Source: a bacterium (GTDB lineage Bacteria > Patescibacteriota > Minisyncoccia > Phycocordibacterales > UBA5272). Taken from it: DNA of 64,000 nt. Shown in pieces: positions 6,314-50,813 of this stretch (its first letter is position 1; each line of letters begins with the position of its first letter). The notes beneath the pieces are model-generated. The model worked only from the letters and a program-made list of their open reading frames with translations. It made no database searches and was not told the origin of the DNA. The stretch is from NCBI GenBank assembly GCA_023267535.1, contig JAHFNC010000002.1, positions 119,426-183,425 on the forward strand, written 5' to 3'. The position numbers were made by a program, and so were the translations under genes.

Positions 6314-7723
6314 TTAAAATTGTTTGATTATTTCTTGAAACATTTGTGGATTTCCACTTCCTTTACTTTCTTTCATACACTGACCGACAAAAAACATTAA
6401 TAGCTTTTCATTACCACCCTTAAATTCATTCCACTGTGTTTCGTTTGCTTTTGCTACAGTTTCTACAATTTTCTTTAATGCTTCAATATCATTCTTCTGG
6501 ATTAATCCTAATTCTTCAGCCTTTTTCTTAACATCTAAATTTTTATCAGTTAGCATAAAAGGAAGTAAATCCTTTGCTCCGCGAGAGGATAATTCATTTG
6601 CAACAATCATATCAATTAATTCTCTAAAAGATTCTATTGATGGGAAATTAGAAGAGATAAGTTCCTTACTATCTTTTTTAAGAAGACCAAAAATATCTGC
6701 CACTAAATAGTTTGATGCTAGATTAGCATAATCATTATTTTTTCCTTCAATTACTTTTTCAAAATAATCTGCAGTAGACATATCGTTTAGAATTATTTCT
6801 ACGGCTTCATCTTTAAGTGATAATGATTTATATTTTTCTCGTCTTTCTTTTGGAAGTTCTGGAAGTTCTTTTTTCAATTCTTCAATATCAAAAAGTTCTG
6901 ACAAATAAAGTTTTGGAAGATCGGGGTCAGGGAAATAACGATAATCATGAGCATTTTCTTTTTTGCGTTGACTGAAAGTTATTTGTTTGGTTTCATCCCA
7001 TCCGCGAGTTTCTTGAACAATTACACCTCCTTCATTTAAAACTTCAATATGTCGCGCGATTTCAAATTTTATTGCTTCTTCTACTGAGCGAAACGAGTTT
7101 AAATTTTTTACTTCAACTTTTGTGCCGAATTTTGAATCTTTTGAAACAGAAATATTTGCTTCCACTCTCATTTGTCCCATTTCCATATTGGCTTCGGATG
7201 CTCCCACATAACGAAGTATCCTTTGAAGTTCTCTGGCGAAATTTCCAGCGTCTTCAGCATTGTGAATAACTGGCTCAGTAACAAGCTCCATAAGAGGAAC
7301 TCCTGCGCGATTAAAATCAATCAAAGTGTAACCGTCGTTATCATGACCAGACTTGGCAGTATCTTCTTCCAAATGAATACGAGTAAGAGCAATACCTTTT
7401 ATTTCTCCATTTGATACGATAGGGAGCTTGTATTGTGATAACTGATAACCTTTTGGAATATCTGGGTAAAAATAATTTTTTCTATCAAATTCTGTAAAGT
7501 CGGCAATATCTGCACCAACTGACAATCCAACTTTTATTACTTTTCTTATAGCTTCTTTATTTGGAACGGGGAGTGTTCCAGGGTGTGCCATACACACTTC
7601 ACAAATATTTGTATTTGGCTTCTCTGCATTTGGGTCATTCTTACAACCACACCACATTTTGGAATTGGTGTGTAATTCGGCGTGTATTTCAAGACCTATG
7701 GTTGGAGTGTATTCGTTAGACAT
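6314..7723 (-). CDS. gatB: Asp-tRNA(Asn)/Glu-tRNA(Gln) amidotransferase subunit B
   Basis: N-terminus MSNEYTPTIGLEIHAELHTNSKMWCGC...CEVCMAHPGTLPV is typical GatB. Confidence 0.9.
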   Translation of the reverse strand: MSNEYTPTIGLEIHAELHTNSKMWCGCKNDPNAEKPNTNICEVCMAHPGTLPVPNKEAIRKVIKVGLSVGADIADFTEFDRKNYFYPDIPKGYQLSQYKLPIVSNGEIKGIALTRIHLEEDTAKSGHDNDGYTLIDFNRAGVPLMELVTEPVIHNAEDAGNFARELQRILRYVGASEANMEMGQMRVEANISVSKDSKFGTKVEVKNLNSFRSVEEAIKFEIARHIEVLNEGGVIVQETRGWDETKQITFSQRKKENAHDYRYFPDPDLPKLYLSELFDIEELKKELPELPKERREKYKSLSLKDEAVEIILNDMSTADYFEKVIEGKNNDYANLASNYLVADIFGLLKKDSKELISSNFPSIESFRELIDMIVANELSSRGAKDLLPFMLTDKNLDVKKKAEELGLIQKNDIEALKKIVETVAKANETQWNEFKGGNEKLLMFFVGQCMKESKGSGNPQMFQEIIKQF

Positions 7724-43066: not shown

Positions 43067-45481
43067 ATGGCTTCATACAACCACAAAGAAATAGAAAAGA
43101 AATGGCAAGAGAGATGGGACAAGGAAAATCCATACAAAACAAATATAAATAGCGATAAGAAAAAAACTTATCTATTGGTTGAGTTTCCTTATCCGTCAGG
43201 AGCAGGATTACACGTAGGACATGTTAGAAGTTATACCGCTATGGACGTTGTAGCTAGGAAACGACGTCGTGAAGGGTATGAAGTTTTATTTCCGATTGGA
43301 TGGGATGCTTTCGGGTTACCAGCAGAAAATTATGCTATTAAAACAGGAATACATCCATCTATCACAACCAGAGAAAATATTTCTACTTTTCGAAGTCAGT
43401 TAAAAGCTTGTGGTTTTTCTTTTGATTTCGAAAGAGAGGTTGATACTACAGACCCTAAGTATTACAAATGGACACAGTGGATATTTTTGAAGCTTTATGA
43501 AAAAGGTCTGGCTTACAAAAAGAACATGCCGGTAAACTGGTGTCCAAATGACAAGTGTGTTTTAGCTAACGAAGAAGTCCTTGATGGAAAATGTGAGAGA
43601 TGTGGAGCAGAAGTTGAAAAGAAAGACAAAGAGCAATGGATGTTGGCAATTACAAAATACGCCGAAAGACTAGATAAAGATTTAGACGAGACACAATTTT
43701 TAGATAAAATAAAAATCCAACAAAGAAATTGGATTGGAATTTCCGAAGGATCAGAAATTGATTTTAAATTAACAATCGGAGACAGTTTTACAATTTTTAC
43801 AACCAGAGCCGACACATTGTTTGGTTGCACTTATTGTGTCTTTGCCCCAGAACATCCACTTGTTTCTAAATTAATAGCAGAAAATAAAATAACAAATACT
43901 CTTGAAGTTAAAAAATATGTAGTTGAAGCTAGACAAAAGTTAGATATAGACAGATCAGCTGAAGGAAAAGAAAAAACAGGAGTCAAGCTAGAAGGAATAA
44001 TGGCTATCAATCCAGTTAACAAAAAAGAGATACCAGTTTTTATTGCTGATTATGTTTTACCAAACTATGGAACGGGAGCGATTATGGCCGTTCCAGCTCA
44101 CGACGAACGCGATTATGAATTTGCTAAGAAATATAATTTAGAAATAATTAAGGTTATCGATGATGGAACAGAAGGTGATTATAATGTTGGTTATGGTAAA
44201 TTAATAAACTCTGAAAATTTTTCGGGGAGTAGTTCAGAAGAAGCCAAAACAAAAATCACAGAAACACTTCACGGAAGAGTTGTGAAGAAATCAAAACTTC
44301 GTGATTGGGTTTTTGCTCGCCAAAGATATTGGGGAGAACCAATACCAATTGTTTATGATGAGACAGGAAAAATGTATCCAGTGTCTGCGACTAATCTTCC
44401 GATAACTCTACCAAATGTAGAAAAGTATGAACCAACAGACAACGGCGAGTCTCCACTTCATCAAGTTGCTGACTGGGTAAATGTAAAAGGAAAAATTGAT
44501 AATGATGGACATTTTTATTCATCAGATGAAAGTGATGCTAAAAATTTTAAAAGAGAAACAGATACTATGCCTCAATGGGCCGGCTCGTCTTGGTATTTTA
44601 TAAGATACATTGATAACTTAAACGATAGTGCTCTGGGCAATGAATCCTTACTTAAAAAATGGCTTCCAGTTGATTGGTATAACGGAGGAATGGAACACAC
44701 CACTCTTCACCTCTTATATTCTCGTTTTTGGTATAAGTTTTTATTTGATATCGGAGTCGTTCCTACTAGTGAGCCATATTTCAGAAGAACTTCACAAGGA
44801 ATGATTTTAGGTAAAGGAGGGGTTAAGATGAGTAAGAGTTTGGGTAATGTTATTAATCCTGATGAGATTGTAGAAAAAGATGGGGCGGATGTTCTTCGTC
44901 TTTACGAAATGTTTATCGGACCTTTTGATCAAGCGGTAGCTTGGGATGACAAAGCTATAATTGGAGTTAGAAGATTTTTAGAAAAAGTTGATTCACTTTC
45001 TAATAAAGTAGTAGAGGGTGATGAAGTGGAATCAATAACTCACAAAACTATTAAACAAATTGGAGAACAAATTGAAAGTATGAGTTTCAATACTTGTATA
45101 TCACAGCTAATGATTTGTGCCAATGATTATGAAAAAAGAGAAAAAATCTCAAAGAAAGAATTTACAATGTTCGTTCAGGCCATGTCTCCGTTTGCTCCGT
45201 TTCTAGGAGAAGAACTTTGGGAAAAACTTGGTATGAGCGGTTCGGTTCACATAAGTGAGTGGCCAAAATATGACGAAAATAAACTAACAGGGGACGAAGT
45301 CACCATCGCTTTTCAAGTAAATGGAAAATTAAGAGGGACTTTTGTAATCGCAACCAATTCTAGTGATGAAGATATAAAAACACTTGCCAAAAGCTTAGAT
45401 TCTTATAAAAAATATATCGGGGATTTAGTTCCAAAAAAGGAGATTGTAATCAAAAACAAGTTAATAAATGTCGTTATTTGA
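43067..45481 (+). CDS. leuS: Leucyl-tRNA synthetase
   Basis: HIGH motif HVGHVRSY; KMSKS; CP1 editing domain; 804 aa. Confidence 0.9.
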   Translation: MASYNHKEIEKKWQERWDKENPYKTNINSDKKKTYLLVEFPYPSGAGLHVGHVRSYTAMDVVARKRRREGYEVLFPIGWDAFGLPAENYAIKTGIHPSITTRENISTFRSQLKACGFSFDFEREVDTTDPKYYKWTQWIFLKLYEKGLAYKKNMPVNWCPNDKCVLANEEVLDGKCERCGAEVEKKDKEQWMLAITKYAERLDKDLDETQFLDKIKIQQRNWIGISEGSEIDFKLTIGDSFTIFTTRADTLFGCTYCVFAPEHPLVSKLIAENKITNTLEVKKYVVEARQKLDIDRSAEGKEKTGVKLEGIMAINPVNKKEIPVFIADYVLPNYGTGAIMAVPAHDERDYEFAKKYNLEIIKVIDDGTEGDYNVGYGKLINSENFSGSSSEEAKTKITETLHGRVVKKSKLRDWVFARQRYWGEPIPIVYDETGKMYPVSATNLPITLPNVEKYEPTDNGESPLHQVADWVNVKGKIDNDGHFYSSDESDAKNFKRETDTMPQWAGSSWYFIRYIDNLNDSALGNESLLKKWLPVDWYNGGMEHTTLHLLYSRFWYKFLFDIGVVPTSEPYFRRTSQGMILGKGGVKMSKSLGNVINPDEIVEKDGADVLRLYEMFIGPFDQAVAWDDKAIIGVRRFLEKVDSLSNKVVEGDEVESITHKTIKQIGEQIESMSFNTCISQLMICANDYEKREKISKKEFTMFVQAMSPFAPFLGEELWEKLGMSGSVHISEWPKYDENKLTGDEVTIAFQVNGKLRGTFVIATNSSDEDIKTLAKSLDSYKKYIGDLVPKKEIVIKNKLINVVI

Positions 45482-46623: not shown

Positions 46624-48111
46624 ATGCAGTTTTTCGTTGATATCATATTACTTTTGGTCTACGCAATACCTGTTTTATATATGTGTGCTTTGCTTTGGAG
46701 ATTTTGGATGCTTTATATAAATCAAAAAGCGGTAAACAAGGTGAACAAAGACACCATAATGCTTGAGATTAAACTTCCTCGCGAAATAGACAAATCTCCA
46801 TTTGCTATGGAAATTACCTCTAGAGCTTTTTTACAAGGAGGAGGAATAGGAACTTGGTATCATAGGCAATGGCTTGGTAATTTGCCGATGCAATTTTCTT
46901 TAGAAATTGCTTCCCTCGAAGGAATCGTACACTTTTATATAAGAACACAAAAGAAATTTAAATCTCTTATTGAGTCCAATATATACGCTCAATATCCGGG
47001 TGTAGAAATAGTTGAAGCCGATGACTATACAAAACTAATTAGATATCATCACCTTTCTAAAGATGTTAAATTATGGGGGGCTGCTTTTGTTTTAGGTGCA
47101 AAAAGAAAAGTTGGATTTGATAAAAAAGGAAAAGATTATGAAATGGTAGCCGATTACATTCCTTTAAAAACTTATATTGATTATGGTTTCGATAAAGACC
47201 CAAAAGAGCAATACAAAAATGATCCAATCACTCCACTTCTTGAATTTATGGGATCCGTGGGTAAAGGAGAATATGTTTGGTATCAAATCATCATTCAAGA
47301 CGAAGCTGCTTTCAATGATAAGAAATTTCCAAAATATTATTTCGATAAAGTATTAGGTAAAAGATTGGGGCTTGCTGACTTGGCTGATATGAGAAAGAAA
47401 TTTATAAGAAAATATAAAAAAATTAAAGAAGGCTCTTTAGCTTTTGATCAATTTGGTAATCCTATTCAAAAAACCGTAAGAGGGAGTGATGACAAAGTTG
47501 AATTACAACCAGTGACTTACGCTGACGACAGAGAAACTCAATTGAAAGAAGTTGATTTAACTCCTGAAGAAAAAGATGAAATAGAGCTCATCAATCGTAA
47601 ACTATCAAAACCATTAGCGAAAGTAATTTTAAGGTTAGTTTATCTTGCCAGAGATGACATGAAAGCTTTTAAACCAGATAGAATACAAAATGTTCTAAAT
47701 ATATTAAGACCTTTCCATGGTGTAAATAGTTTTATTCCTAAGCCGTCGGATGGTTACGATTATCCATGGCAAGATTTTATGAAGCGTCGTGTTCCATGGA
47801 GAGGTGAAGAAATGTATGATGAATACGTTCAAAGAGATGGTTTTACTCCATACGCCTCAAAAAGAGATGGTTTAGATAAATTTGAAGATGTTTTCTTTTG
47901 GGGTTTTCCTATGAGAACAAGAAGACTCTGGAGAACATTTTTTGAAACAGTAGCTCATCCATTTTCTTATCCACAGTCAGATTTAGTTTTCACCTTAAAT
48001 GTAGAGGAATTAGCTACCATGTATCACTTCCCAGGACAAACCGCCAACATCCCAACTCTTCCAAGAATTGATAGCACCAAGGGTGTGGCCCCATTTAATT
48101 TACCTCAATAA
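46624..48111 (+). CDS. Hypothetical 495 aa protein with a single N-terminal TM
   Basis: ORF only; no recognised motif. Confidence 0.4.
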   Translation: MQFFVDIILLLVYAIPVLYMCALLWRFWMLYINQKAVNKVNKDTIMLEIKLPREIDKSPFAMEITSRAFLQGGGIGTWYHRQWLGNLPMQFSLEIASLEGIVHFYIRTQKKFKSLIESNIYAQYPGVEIVEADDYTKLIRYHHLSKDVKLWGAAFVLGAKRKVGFDKKGKDYEMVADYIPLKTYIDYGFDKDPKEQYKNDPITPLLEFMGSVGKGEYVWYQIIIQDEAAFNDKKFPKYYFDKVLGKRLGLADLADMRKKFIRKYKKIKEGSLAFDQFGNPIQKTVRGSDDKVELQPVTYADDRETQLKEVDLTPEEKDEIELINRKLSKPLAKVILRLVYLARDDMKAFKPDRIQNVLNILRPFHGVNSFIPKPSDGYDYPWQDFMKRRVPWRGEEMYDEYVQRDGFTPYASKRDGLDKFEDVFFWGFPMRTRRLWRTFFETVAHPFSYPQSDLVFTLNVEELATMYHFPGQTANIPTLPRIDSTKGVAPFNLPQ

Positions 48112-48113
48112 AT

Positions 48114-49007
48114 ATGTTTAGTTTTCGTAATTTTATTTATTTAATAATTTTAATTTCAGTTCTTATAATAGGATATTTCTATAATGTATTTTATACAATA
48201 CCAGGAAATTTTCCGAGAGGTGAAGTCTTTTTAATTGAAGAAGGTGAAAGTTTAAAAAGTGTAAGTGTTAGATTAGAAAATGACCATATTATAAACTCGG
48301 CGCTATGGTTTCGTGCTTTTCTTTCTTTGAAAAGAAAAGATAGAAATATGCAACTTGGATATTATAAATTTGATACACCGATTTCTCTTTCTAATGTGGC
48401 GCAGAAGATTTTCCAAACTGGCCCTGATTTACCGCTTATAAAAGTAACTTTCCCAGAGGGAAGTAATACTGATGAAATTTCAAAAATTTTAAAGGGGGCG
48501 TTGCCAAATTTTTCTGAAGACAAATTTAAATTATTTGTTAAACAGAATTCTTTAAATGGATTTTTATTTCCATCCACCTATTTTTTACTTCCATCGAGTA
48601 ATGAAGAAAGTATCGCTCTTAAAATGAAAAAAGTTTTTGACAAACAGTTTGTTTGGATAGATGTAAACGGAAAACACTTTTTAAATAATGAAAAAGATTT
48701 TGTCATTTTAGCTTCCATCTTGGAAGGGGAGGCAAAAACTGGAGACGACATGAAAATTGTTTCCGGAATTTTACAGAAAAGGTTGGCTAGTAATATGGCT
48801 CTTCAGGTAGATGTTGCTAAAGAAACATACAAAACAAAAGGATTGCCCATAACACCACTTAATAATCCAGGAAGTATTGCCATAGATGCAGCTTATAACC
48901 CAACGGAAACCAATTATTTTTTTTATTTAACAGGCCGTGATGGAAAAATGCATTATGCTAAAACTTTTGCAGAGCATAAAAGTAATATTGCTAAGTATTT
49001 AAAATAA
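48114..49007 (+). CDS. mltG: Endolytic murein transglycosylase MltG (YceG-like)
   Basis: N-terminal TM; YceG-like region LQKRLASNMALQVD and conserved Glu region ASILEGEAK. Confidence 0.8.
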   Translation: MFSFRNFIYLIILISVLIIGYFYNVFYTIPGNFPRGEVFLIEEGESLKSVSVRLENDHIINSALWFRAFLSLKRKDRNMQLGYYKFDTPISLSNVAQKIFQTGPDLPLIKVTFPEGSNTDEISKILKGALPNFSEDKFKLFVKQNSLNGFLFPSTYFLLPSSNEESIALKMKKVFDKQFVWIDVNGKHFLNNEKDFVILASILEGEAKTGDDMKIVSGILQKRLASNMALQVDVAKETYKTKGLPITPLNNPGSIAIDAAYNPTETNYFFYLTGRDGKMHYAKTFAEHKSNIAKYLK

Positions 49008-49123
49008 ATAATTTTTTATGGTAGAGTCAAGAGGTAGATGCTTGTTTAGCTTCTATGAGTGTTACGGCGACTCAGCTAGAAATGGCTTAACTGCCTCAGT
49101 AGTTCTTTCCAAGGAGAAATATC

Positions 49124-49702
49124 GTGGCTGGTTACGATGGTTCTGAGGGTGAATCACCTTGTAGTAGAAACAATTCTGAAGGGTGTGAGAAATGTCGTAG
49201 AGGATGTTTCCCGTACTCTGCTTTAATAGAAACACCCAGTGGTAAGATCCCTATTGGAGATTTAAGAGTAGGGCAAATGGTTCTATCTTATAGCAATACC
49301 GGTATTCTAGTGCCAAGACGTATCACGCGCAAATTATCGTATGGCCCAGCCTCAATTGTTAGAGTTGAGTTTACGCCTAACAAGACACACCTAAACTGTA
49401 CCGAGAGTCACAGTTTCCTGACCGGTAGAGGTTGGCTAGCTGTTAAAAAACTTCACTCAGGTGATAGTATTTTTCAGGCTAAGACCTCCCGCATCAGCCC
49501 AATACAGATTCGCAGAATCACATCAACTGGAAAAATGGAACCGGTGTTCAACCTTTATACGGAAGGTGAACACAATTTCATAGCCGATGATTGCATTGCT
49601 CATAACTTTACATTCCTTAGAGTGTTTAGGATGGCTTTGCACAGAATTTTCTTTGATAATTCTTCCAAGATTATGTTCGGCCAATTGACCGGACAAAACT
49701 AA
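49124..49702 (+). CDS. Stand-alone Hint (intein/bacterial-intein-like) domain protein with a Cys-rich N-terminal peptide and a 31 aa hydrophobic C-terminal tail; GTG start
   Basis: Hint blocks CFPYSALIETPSGKIPIGDLRVGQMV (N-terminal Cys), TESHSF (TxxH), EGEHNFIADDCIAHN (terminal HN); GC-richer patch. Confidence 0.6.
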   Translation: MAGYDGSEGESPCSRNNSEGCEKCRRGCFPYSALIETPSGKIPIGDLRVGQMVLSYSNTGILVPRRITRKLSYGPASIVRVEFTPNKTHLNCTESHSFLTGRGWLAVKKLHSGDSIFQAKTSRISPIQIRRITSTGKMEPVFNLYTEGEHNFIADDCIAHNFTFLRVFRMALHRIFFDNSSKIMFGQLTGQN

Positions 49703-49714
49703 TCGAAATTACTT

Positions 49715-49746
49715 ATAAGCTCACTTGCGTGGGCTTATTTTTTTAT
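49715..49746 (+). terminator. Intrinsic terminator
   Basis: ataagctcac-ttgc-gtgggcttat followed by a T-run. Confidence 0.65.
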
Positions 49747-49778
49747 TAACGACGTAGAGCGAGAGAAGTGGAAAAGTA
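49743..49778 (+). repeat. Post-terminator motif, copy 1 (TTATTRACGACGTARAGCGAGAGAAG.G.AAAAGTA)
   Basis: ttattaacgacgtagagcgagagaagtggaaaagta; compare 57923-57958. Confidence 0.5.
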
Positions 49779-49889
49779 ATCTTTTACACTTCCGAGCCGA
49801 GGAGTTAAAAAGGATGAAATACCTCGTCAGCTTGCTGCTATAATCTTTTATTTTATAAACTCTCATATGTTATAATCTATTATCTAATT

Positions 49890-50441
49890 ATGAAATTACA
49901 CAACCTCGCATTTATCGACACCGAAACAACAGGACTTGATCCAAATAAGCACGAAATAATAGAACTTGCCGTGATTGTTGCAAAACAAATACCACGCGAA
50001 GGCAGAGGCCCTAAGTTAGAAGTTATTGAAGAATATGAATGGAAAATAAAACCTCTTCATATAGAAACTGCTGAAGAACAAGCTCTTCGCGTGAATGGAT
50101 ATAACGAAGTAGATTGGATGTTCGCTCTTGATTTAAAACCCGTCATGGAAGAATTTTCTAAAAAAACTGAAAGCGCAATTTTCGTATCACACAATTTAAC
50201 TTTTGATTATAATTTTTTGATGAAAGCCTTTGAAGAAACAGGAGTAGAAAATAGAATGCATTATGGAAAATTAGACACGATATCAATTGCTTTCGCTAGA
50301 TTATATGACGCACCACTAGCTGAAAGATTTTCTCTAAAGGCAATTGCTGAATTATTAAAAGTAGAAAACACTAAAGCACACACCGCACTTGCCGATACTA
50401 GAGCTTTGTTTGAATCATATCGTAAACTTATGGGGGCTTAG
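49890..50441 (+). CDS. DnaQ-like 3'-5' exonuclease (DEDDh)
   Basis: Exo I AFIDTETTGLD; Exo III HTALADTRAL. Confidence 0.75.
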   Translation: MKLHNLAFIDTETTGLDPNKHEIIELAVIVAKQIPREGRGPKLEVIEEYEWKIKPLHIETAEEQALRVNGYNEVDWMFALDLKPVMEEFSKKTESAIFVSHNLTFDYNFLMKAFEETGVENRMHYGKLDTISIAFARLYDAPLAERFSLKAIAELLKVENTKAHTALADTRALFESYRKLMGA

Positions 50442-50456
50442 TTTATAAATTAATAA

Positions 50457-50486
50457 GCGCAAGCTTTTGGCTTGCGCTCGTTTTTA
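50457..50486. terminator. Bidirectional intrinsic terminator
   Basis: agcgcaagc-ttttg-gcttgcgct followed by a T-run. Confidence 0.65.
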
Positions 50487-50813
50487 TCTCCATATTTGTT
50501 CAATCCAGCAATTGGGGTAAATATGAGGAGTCCCGAATTGGTCATACTGGAGATTGTAGCTATTGCCACACCTGAGTATCTGAATTGGTTGTGGCCTCAT
50601 CTGAGGTGTTTGATACATTGGCATTGGGGCCATATATCCGCCCATATACCCACCCTGGAAACCAAAATACTGGCTACGGGGGGTGTTACCTAAGGATAAG
50701 GCGAAACCGTTACCGGCAATGGAAATGTTCCCGTAAACTCGAGAATTGGCGTTTGCGGGGATTATGGTTACCACCAAAATACAAAGAGCAATTATTGCCA
50801 ACAATCTTTTCAT
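50484..50813 (-). CDS. Small secreted Gly/Tyr/Met/Pro/Gln-rich protein with 3 Cys
   Basis: Signal peptide MKRLLAIIALCILVVTIIPANA; GC-richer patch. Confidence 0.4.
   Translation of the reverse strand: MKRLLAIIALCILVVTIIPANANSRVYGNISIAGNGFALSLGNTPRSQYFGFQGGYMGGYMAPMPMYQTPQMRPQPIQILRCGNSYNLQYDQFGTPHIYPNCWIEQIWR

Follow-up and report, generated by a model that had tools for sequence, protein, structure and literature searches.

What does a Hint domain do when it is embedded in no host protein? The question is raised by a single gene, flanked by genes for YceG/MltG and an RNase T-like exonuclease, in a 64,000-nucleotide stretch of bacterial DNA (the window). Hint domains have three known settings, as selfish inteins, as pretoxin processors and as the autoprocessing domain of Hedgehog. 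The window gene encodes an N-terminal flank (N-flank), a Hint core and a C-terminal flank (C-flank) that opens with a conserved tail. Proteins of this kind, referred to here as Hint+tail, are a large undescribed family whose Hint domain resembles that of type A bacterial intein-like (BIL) proteins and whose conserved tail is novel. The reading favored here, at a probability of roughly one half, is that they form a BIL-A-like autoprocessing family in which a variable N-terminal peptide is joined to a mini-Hint and a conserved helical tail.

The Hint domain, its tail and its relatives

The window protein carries the complete Hint signature that a sequence-only reading of this DNA had proposed, and profiles, AlphaFold2 (AF2) models and Foldseek comparisons agree on it. 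The protein scores 36.3 bits with Pfam Intein_splicing (cut-off 35.8) and 18.1 bits with NCBIfam intein_Cterm (cut-off 15.6), and phmmer matches DnaB mini-inteins in the PDB at E~1e-4. Three further Pfam profiles, Hint_2, Hint and PT-HINT, stay below threshold. PT-HINT (PF07591) reaches 16.7 bits against a gathering threshold of 27.7, and the Hedgehog-type Hint profile (PF01079) reaches 18.7 bits against 29.7, over residues 26-65 only. Some family members do pass the PT-HINT threshold (e.g., P0043 with 43.3 bits and P0090 with 46.4 bits). AF2 models have a predicted local distance difference test score (pLDDT) of 81.5 when built from 25 sequences and 85.9 when built from 98, rising above 90 for core residues 28-161, and the predicted structure is the horseshoe-like all-beta fold of the HINT superfamily. 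The best Foldseek matches are the NpuDnaB and Ssp DnaB mini-inteins (E 6e-11 to 9e-12, target-normalized TM 0.88), which are 26-27% identical to the window protein; a C. thermocellum BIL, BIL2 of Tetrahymena BUBL and Hedgehog (1at0) are matched as well. Cys28 (tgt, 49205-49207) supplies the N-terminal nucleophile of the superfamily and T93-E-S-H96 its block B TxxH. H150 follows, and H160-N161 (cat aac, 49601-49606) forms the C-terminal His-Asn of class 1 inteins. The +1 residue is Phe162 and not the Cys, Ser or Thr nucleophile of that class.

The family is large and uniform. A HMMER profile scan of 1.84 billion representative proteins, clustered at 50% identity, returned 273 proteins (clusters) at E<=1e-30 and 3,275 at E<=1e-10; judged by these profile scores, the Hint match is far beyond chance. 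The best matches share one architecture, mostly of 180-260 residues with the Hint domain at the C-terminal end. Across 152 members the N-flank spans 16-344 residues (median 47), the core 124-141 (about 133) and the C-flank a median of 33. A word-index search found 24 relatives of 188-252 residues, all stand-alone, and the earlier observation that the Hint domain is not embedded in a host protein extends to every one of them. Two of the 24 are named by NCBI as proteins of Minisyncoccia and Pacebacteria metagenome-assembled genomes (MAGs). Minisyncoccia falls within the phylum Minisyncoccota, which corresponds to the candidate phyla radiation (CPR)/Patescibacteria. The family is not limited to CPR, since one member comes from a Myxococcales MAG, although the taxonomic range rests on few MAG names and is thinly sampled by the GTDB species-representative genomes, where exact peptide patterns found one locus only. 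No curated Pfam or NCBIfam model describes the family, and no publication describing it was found in the literature searched.

Conservation separates the protein into four parts. Among the 25 closest relatives, the mean pairwise identity of the 17-residue tail (61%) exceeds that of the Hint domain (53%), and both the N-flank and the final 14 residues stand at 11%. The expectation that the flanks vary around a conserved core therefore holds for the N-flank and fails for the C-flank, where the tail is better conserved than the core itself. Residue counts, in window numbering, were taken over 158 aligned sequences and, for Cys1 of the Hint domain, over the 154 that reach the N-terminus. Cys1 is present in 154/154, T93 in 151, H96 in 155, H160 in 157, N161 in 153 and F162 in 155, and F29 (152), N143 (153) and H150 (150) are kept to a similar degree. 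Residue -1 is small (G 54, S 45, A 18, T 11, N 9). Family members are defined by a Cys-Phe-Pro start, a His-Asn-Phe-[Thr/Ser] junction and an R-x-x-R-T-x-x-H-R...D tail near the C-terminus, and the window protein has all three in C28-F-P, H160-N-F-T and R166, R169, H173 and D178.

Such constancy bears on the possibility that the gene is a degenerate intein remnant or the pseudogene of a larger, disrupted gene. The absence of a host protein is the sole point for this idea. The open reading frame (ORF) is intact, with a Shine-Dalgarno (SD) sequence and a terminator, the architecture is constant over the 273 clusters, syntenic orthologues at 44-58% identity are intact too, and the near-invariant catalytic set is conserved in about 150 homologues. 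A remnant or pseudogene is scarcely credible.

The tail, the first 17 of the 31 C-flank residues, is the most conserved stretch of the family, with the motif F-[TS]-x-h-R-x-h-R-T-x-h-H-R-h-F-x-D(-P). F162, R166 (142/158), R169 (154/158), H173 (131/158) and D178 (127/158) are near-invariant in it, and a tail profile scores 31.8 bits on the window ORF. In the 98-sequence AF2 model the tail forms one helix (165-191; block-mean pLDDT 72-80 for 161-180 and 60-66 beyond), in which R166, R169, T170 and H173 are predicted to share one polar face. Five members have Ser or Thr in place of the terminal Asn and keep both the +1 Phe and the tail, so the role of the tail is independent of its release. The earlier description of an amphipathic 31-mer is right in length and wrong in character, as its hydrophobic moment (0.35) does not exceed permutations (p=0.36); an amphipathic membrane-targeting tail was rejected on the same ground. 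Nor does the 31-mer look like a variable, released payload, because no stretch is better conserved than its first 17 residues, which persist where Asn is lost. Probably, the tail is an integral accessory of the module that serves docking, positioning or partner binding. Neither the tail profile nor a profile of the CFI-box module introduced below matched any PDB sequence at E<=10.

The closest relatives of the core outside the Hint+tail family are found in five tandem-Hint proteins (P0027, P0028, P0029, P0034 and P0036) of 579-1,132 residues with 3-5 Hint domains each. These align over Cys1..Asn only and have no tail. In P0027 the Hint copies are linked by 2-4 residues (HN-KG-C, HN-KGGG-C) and are followed by a transmembrane (TM) segment and a Tim44-like domain.

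Module exchange and predicted processing at the cysteine

The window N-flank has 27 residues and three Cys (C13, C21, C24). The sequence-only reading had counted 28 residues with four Cys, because the fourth Cys it quoted is Cys1 of the Hint domain. Among the long N-flanks elsewhere in the family are ones with zinc ribbons, SAM/TPR, an L7/L12-CTD-like segment, multi-TM regions or an M91-like metallopeptidase motif. At least one CxxC pair lies near Cys1 in 50 of the 152 N-flanks, and 65 of the 152 have no Cys. The members with an M91-like (HELxH) N-region at L017 and L019 (Table 1) are followed by a gene for a PKD-domain protein. An extension C-terminal to the tail in P0051 is homologous to a separate ORF of 176 residues in L019.

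Two loci at the YceG/RNase T site show the same N-flank joined to different C-terminal modules. The cassette at L044 encodes a protein of 119 residues, of which the first 46 are nearly identical to the N-flank of P0015, the Hint protein of L013. After ...Ser-Cys-Phe the L044 protein runs on as CFIATAVYGDPMAFEVVTLRHFRD..., which belongs to CFI_box_CTERM (NCBIfam NF041770; 96.6 bits for L044 and 92.6 bits for L042, cut-off 40). DNA of the two loci is 86-89% identical through YceG, promoter, leader and N-flank; homology stops exactly after TGC TTC and sets in again about 120 bp ahead of the start codon of RNase T. CFI-box proteins have diverse N-regions, then a small residue, then Cys-Phe. The CFI-box alleles have no Pfam match, and no mention of the CFI-box was found in the literature searched. 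The window protein does not match NF041770, and the window holds no CFI-box anywhere.

At least three N-flank types are common to the Hint and CFI-box families. The first, 'MGKHSDGCPD...GGSSCSLNNCPGCEKC', includes the window N-flank as a homologue (E=3e-7), the second reads '...C.DSHDY.D.SS.DYWGGPD' and the third 'WGTA.D.RS.EDQ.EWE'. When concatenated N-flanks were used as a query in a module census, only P0177 was matched and even the known P0015 was missed. Other N-regions of CFI-box proteins include a cold-shock domain with a zinc ribbon (P0185, P0188-P0190), so the CFI-box follows cytoplasmic-type nucleic-acid-binding domains too. In P0196 the CFI-box is preceded by an InlB-B-repeat-like domain and followed by a TM segment with an Arg-rich anchor.

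Since the swap with another module falls exactly at the Cys, the junction itself is probably the functional point. We infer that Hint+tail and the CFI-box, though unrelated, can replace each other as C-terminal modules that mature peptides of the same families. The exact swap and the persistence of the N-flank families across it make the N-peptide the likely payload and the C-terminal module its maturation device, in keeping with the earlier proposal that the N-flank could be released as a peptide. A Hint domain inserted as an intein into a CFI-box domain, suggested by the likeness of tail 'TxLRxLRT' to CFI 'TLRxFRD', was rejected, as hhalign of the tail profile with the CFI profile gives a probability of 0.7%.

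The module might instead stay uncleaved in vivo and act as a stable domain for binding or regulation, such as a sensor of zinc or redox state. This would give a use to the CxxC pairs near Cys1, and in the window C13, C21, C24 and Cys28 could form a Cys4 site. Zinc and disulfide traps are known to block inteins, and PDB 3nzm is among the Foldseek matches. A role of this kind is nonetheless very unlikely, given the many Cys-less N-flanks, the exact exchange at the Cys and the near-invariance of TxxH, H150, H160 and N161, which are catalytic residues with no known binding role.

Under the autoprocessing reading, Cys28, aided by T93 and H96, would undergo an N-S acyl shift at Gly27|Cys28 to give a thioester. 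Water or a thiol would resolve the thioester and free the N-peptide (27 residues, acidic, Cys-rich) as the product. In most members Asn161, aided by H160 and H150, would also cyclize and cut the chain before Phe162. No branched intermediate would be expected because the +1 residue is an invariant Phe, and autocleavage at Gly27|Cys28 is predicted because all the needed residues are present next to this non-nucleophilic +1 position. In type A BILs, which possess Cys1 and His-Asn and lack a +1 nucleophile, N-terminal thioester chemistry is combined with Asn cleavage; cleavage products dominate and ligation is possible by aminolysis (PMC4031507, PMC7765530). The window protein and its family likewise have His-Asn, no +1 nucleophile and a hypervariable context. 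From the conserved residues, release of the N-peptide by the Hint module is the preferred reading and its transfer less likely.

Splicing of the BIL-A kind would follow if the freed amine of Phe162 attacked the Cys28 thioester, joining N-flank and tail in a product of 58 residues and excising the Hint domain. Both junctions keep their catalytic sets (Cys1, TxxH, H150, H160, N161), the mechanism is documented for type A BILs that have no +1 nucleophile (PMC4031507), and the invariant +1 Phe and conserved tail would be understandable if both belonged to the mature product. Cleavage, however, outweighs splicing in type A BILs (PMC4031507), and the five members with Ser or Thr for Asn still keep the tail. 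No Hint-less 'N-flank + tail' allele was found, other alleles having either an empty site or a CFI-box where Hint+tail would be, and the Hint core is far better conserved than the N-extein, the opposite of what a selfish insert would show. Splicing is thus unlikely. A canonical intein was rejected on the +1 Phe, the absence of a host protein and of an intein-less allele, and an N-flank identity of 11% against 53% for Hint.

A Hedgehog-like transfer, in which a nucleophile brought in by the tail, be it a lipid, a phospho-compound or a protein amine, resolves the thioester and leaves the N-peptide covalently modified at its C-terminus, would explain why the tail is kept where Asn is lost. The order of cargo, small residue|Cys-Phe-Pro Hint and conserved helix parallels Hedge-Hint-SRR, R166, R169, T170 and H173 share one face of the tail helix, and Foldseek matches include Hedgehog 1at0 and the ubiquitin-like-conjugating BIL2 of Tetrahymena BUBL. 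Set against this, 97% of members keep His-Asn, unlike Hog domains, which lack it and score above the PF01079 threshold; the window protein has His-Asn and only the partial, sub-threshold match to that profile. Only about 17 tail residues are conserved, the tail profile matches no PDB sequence and the cassette holds no partner gene. Transfer is, on balance, rather improbable.

Several points weigh against autoprocessing as set out above. Processing is deduced solely from conserved residues, the window protein falls under the PT-HINT and Hint_2 cut-offs, and AF2 confidence in the tail is only 60-80. A payload function common to all members is not evident, because 65 of the 152 N-flanks are Cys-less and the flanks are mostly unalignable. 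A more specific role than simple hydrolysis is suggested by how invariant the +1 Phe and the tail's polar face (R166, R169, T170, H173) are, which may leave room for a Hedgehog-like or splicing variant. One such extension, speculative and unlikely as it stands, treats Hint+tail and CFI-box as two unrelated, interchangeable 'follower' modules that mature short ribosomal peptides where a small residue meets Cys-Phe. The Hint version would place a C-terminal thioester on the peptide, and the conserved basic face of the tail would guide its transfer to a specific acceptor or its closure onto the peptide itself as a thiolactone or lactam.

A variable cassette between YceG and RNase T

The Hint gene forms a single-gene cassette (Table 1) whose presence varies among related genomes. 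The order YceG-Hint-RNase T occurs in the window and in three other lineages, whose Hint proteins are 44-58% identical to that of the window and whose RNase T neighbors are 75-80% identical; other family members lie in unrelated genomic contexts. A metagenome scan queried with the RNase T neighbor returned 52 loci, and 36 of them show YceG together with an RNase T 70-83% identical to that of the window. No Hint gene was found by tblastn at the site in any of these 36. In most Hint-less syntenic loci YceG lies within 14-150 bp of RNase T; in the window the intergenic span is 882 bp. An unbootstrapped neighbor-joining tree built from RNase T DNA does not group the four Hint loci, which are interspersed with empty ones. 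The near-conspecific L045 and L044 show the difference more clearly. They have flanking genes that are 95.5% and 93.9% identical, and between them L045 has 52 bp where L044 has the 760-bp CFI-box cassette. The YceG/RNase T intergenic site is a dynamic single-gene hotspot with gain, loss and swap.

A third type of content at this hotspot is the W/E/D/K-rich ORF of L046, which encodes 117 residues behind the same promoter and leader and has no Hint, CFI-box or NCBIfam match. On a Minisyncoccia MAG contig (L001), a direct repeat of 144 nt (96% identical) brackets promoter, leader and Hint gene, which suggests insertion or duplication of the cassette. No repeats flank the cassette of the window. 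Phage carriage was rejected, as a scan of viral contigs gave no relatives and PHROGs matched a helicase-intein region only. Plasmid carriage was rejected as well, tblastn having returned only distant PT-HINTs, 23-35% identical, in RHS-type proteins.

A promoter-like TTGACA...TGTTAGnGT with a leader of about 100 nt is 82% identical across four loci, two with Hint genes (L013, L006), one with a CFI-box gene (L044) and one with the 117-residue ORF (L046). The leader is better conserved than the coding sequences downstream of it. The window, L015, L001 and L003 also have GTTCTTT(N2-4)AAGGAG immediately ahead of the start codon. A structured leader RNA or riboswitch was rejected: Rfam gave no match for the window or L013, the window fold has z=-0.49, and the four sequences show no covariation.

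Presence/absence and cassette swapping are typical of conflict loci, and raise the possibility of a polymorphic-toxin or pretoxin-HINT cassette that releases a toxic peptide held in check by a cognate immunity gene. The weak PT-HINT similarity of the window protein, above cut-off in relatives, points the same way. Neither the variable C-terminal toxin domain nor the immunity gene of polymorphic toxins is found at the window locus, however: no toxin, secretion or trafficking domain is present, PADLOC gives no match, and the region C-terminal to Hint is conserved rather than polymorphic. The adjacent immunity-like gene that the sequence-only reading had suggested looking for is absent: no second gene lies in the cassette, and RNase T, the next gene downstream, is found at empty sites too. 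The plasmid matches are distant PT-HINT domains of RHS-type proteins. For lack of toxin domain, immunity gene and PADLOC match, and with a conserved C-flank, the polymorphic-toxin half of the earlier analogy fails and a toxin cassette is highly improbable; the BIL half holds mechanistically.

Table 1. Features of the cassette, the window and related loci (window positions unless a locus is named)
Feature	Position	Strand	Remarks
Single-gene cassette	49008..49889	+	YceG/MltG stop to RNase T-like start
5' region and leader	49008..49123	+	SD AAGGAG at 49111-49116, GTTCTTT before it
Hint-protein ORF	49124..49702	+	192 residues, GTG start, stop 49700-49702
N-flank, residues 1-27 (MAGYDGSEGESPCSRNNSEGCEKCRRG)	49124..49204	+	Acidic, Gly/Ser-rich, 3 Cys, predicted disordered
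Hint core, residues 28-161	49205..49606	+	Cys28-Phe-Pro, T93xxH96, N143, H150, H160-N161
Conserved tail, residues 162-178 (FTFLRVFRMALHRIFFD)	49607..49657	+	Family motif match, predicted helix
Variable C-terminal end, residues 179-192	49658..49699	+	11% identity among relatives
Intrinsic terminator-like hairpin, then T-run	49715..49748	+	Hairpin 49715-49738
YceG/MltG gene	48114-49007		Directly 5' of Hint cassette
RNase T-like exonuclease gene	49890-50441		Directly 3' of Hint cassette
LeuRS gene	43067-45481		In window
Sigma70_r4/HARE-HTH protein gene			In window
MnmA, ZIP, Fur and DsbA-like protein genes			Also in window
495-residue protein gene	46624-48111	+	Upstream of YceG
109-residue ORF	50484-50813	-	Between RNase T and MnmA
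Leader, Hint locus	L013:5600-5736
Leader, CFI-box locus	L044:2235-2373
CFI-box protein gene	L044:2371-2727
Leader, Hint locus	L006:5870-6003
Leader, 117-residue ORF locus	L046:2345-2482
117-residue ORF	L046:2480-2833	+	Third content type at the hotspot
Direct repeat	L001:5665-5808 and 6980-7123		144 nt
M91-like N-region members	L017:66-3802; L019:598-4096

The window is 35% GC overall and carries housekeeping genes typical of a small-genome bacterium. Both the GTG start and the SD sequence of the earlier description are present, the SD lying seven bases 5' of the GTG, and so is the GC-richer patch: coding GC is 43-46% for N-flank and Hint against 35% for the window, 30% for YceG and 35.5% for RNase T. 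No Pfam profile matches the 495-residue protein, which carries a hydrophobic segment at its N-terminus; its gene keeps its place ahead of YceG in every related locus examined (L006, L011, L013, L015). The 109-residue ORF lies on a second GC-rich patch (46-47% GC) and encodes a signal-peptide-like N-terminus and a Gly/Met/Pro/Tyr/Gln-rich body. It is also found in L010, and the corresponding L013 spacer is 283 bp shorter than the ORF.

Comparison with known Hint systems

Hint+tail appears to be a fourth, widespread arrangement of the Hint domain, with at least 273 clusters in which Hint and tail are constant and the upstream peptide or domain is variable. The module swap links two uncharacterized modules, Hint+tail and CFI-box. 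For CPR biology, the site adds a dynamic hotspot of single genes whose products are short, acidic peptides, often rich in Cys/His. If cleavage is efficient, mini-Hints with +1 Phe (about 133 residues) could serve as self-removing tags or thioester generators. If the follower-module idea is true, the family would be a bacterial counterpart of Hedgehog/BUBL-type Hint-driven conjugation and a new route of peptide maturation in CPR and other bacteria, and the CFI-box would gain its first functional hypothesis.

The type A BIL and PT-HINT domains (Amitai 2003; Dassa 2004; as summarized in PMC4031507, PMC7765530) share with the family Cys1, TxxH, His-Asn, a missing +1 nucleophile, hypervariable neighboring sequence and residence in non-conserved proteins. 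The expected chemistry would also be shared, with autocleavage at the N- and C-terminal junctions and possibly aminolytic ligation. The window family differs in being stand-alone, at about 200 residues, rather than part of a large secreted toxin, and in its arrangement: the variable part is N-terminal, the C-flank has a conserved motif of 17 residues and the +1 residue is Phe. Unlike PT-HINT, it has no toxin/immunity pair, and the window protein scores under the PT-HINT cut-off.

Class 1 mini-inteins (Npu/Ssp DnaB, Mtu RecA) are the best structural and sequence matches, and the family has all their splicing-block residues, among them the His of block F and the His-Asn of block G. It departs from them in its +1 Phe, in having no conserved host and no intein-less allele, in a Hint domain that is more conserved than the N-flank, and in lacking a homing endonuclease.

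Hedgehog/Hog proteins resemble the family in their junction of cargo and small residue|Cys-Phe-Pro and in a conserved, helical, non-cargo region C-terminal to Hint. The family nevertheless keeps His-Asn, its tail is much shorter and has no detectable relatives, and there is no adduct evidence. In the Tetrahymena BUBL BIL (PDB 6y75/6tmm), a structural match at E~1e-10, the Hint thioester likewise acts on the upstream polypeptide. BUBL is eukaryotic, however, and its BIL, which flanks a ubiquitin-like domain, lacks a conserved tail motif. The CFI-box-CTERM proteins share N-flank families, the Cys-Phe start after a small residue, chromosomal site, promoter and leader with Hint+tail, yet the CFI-box itself is non-homologous, spans 69 residues and has no Hint motifs.

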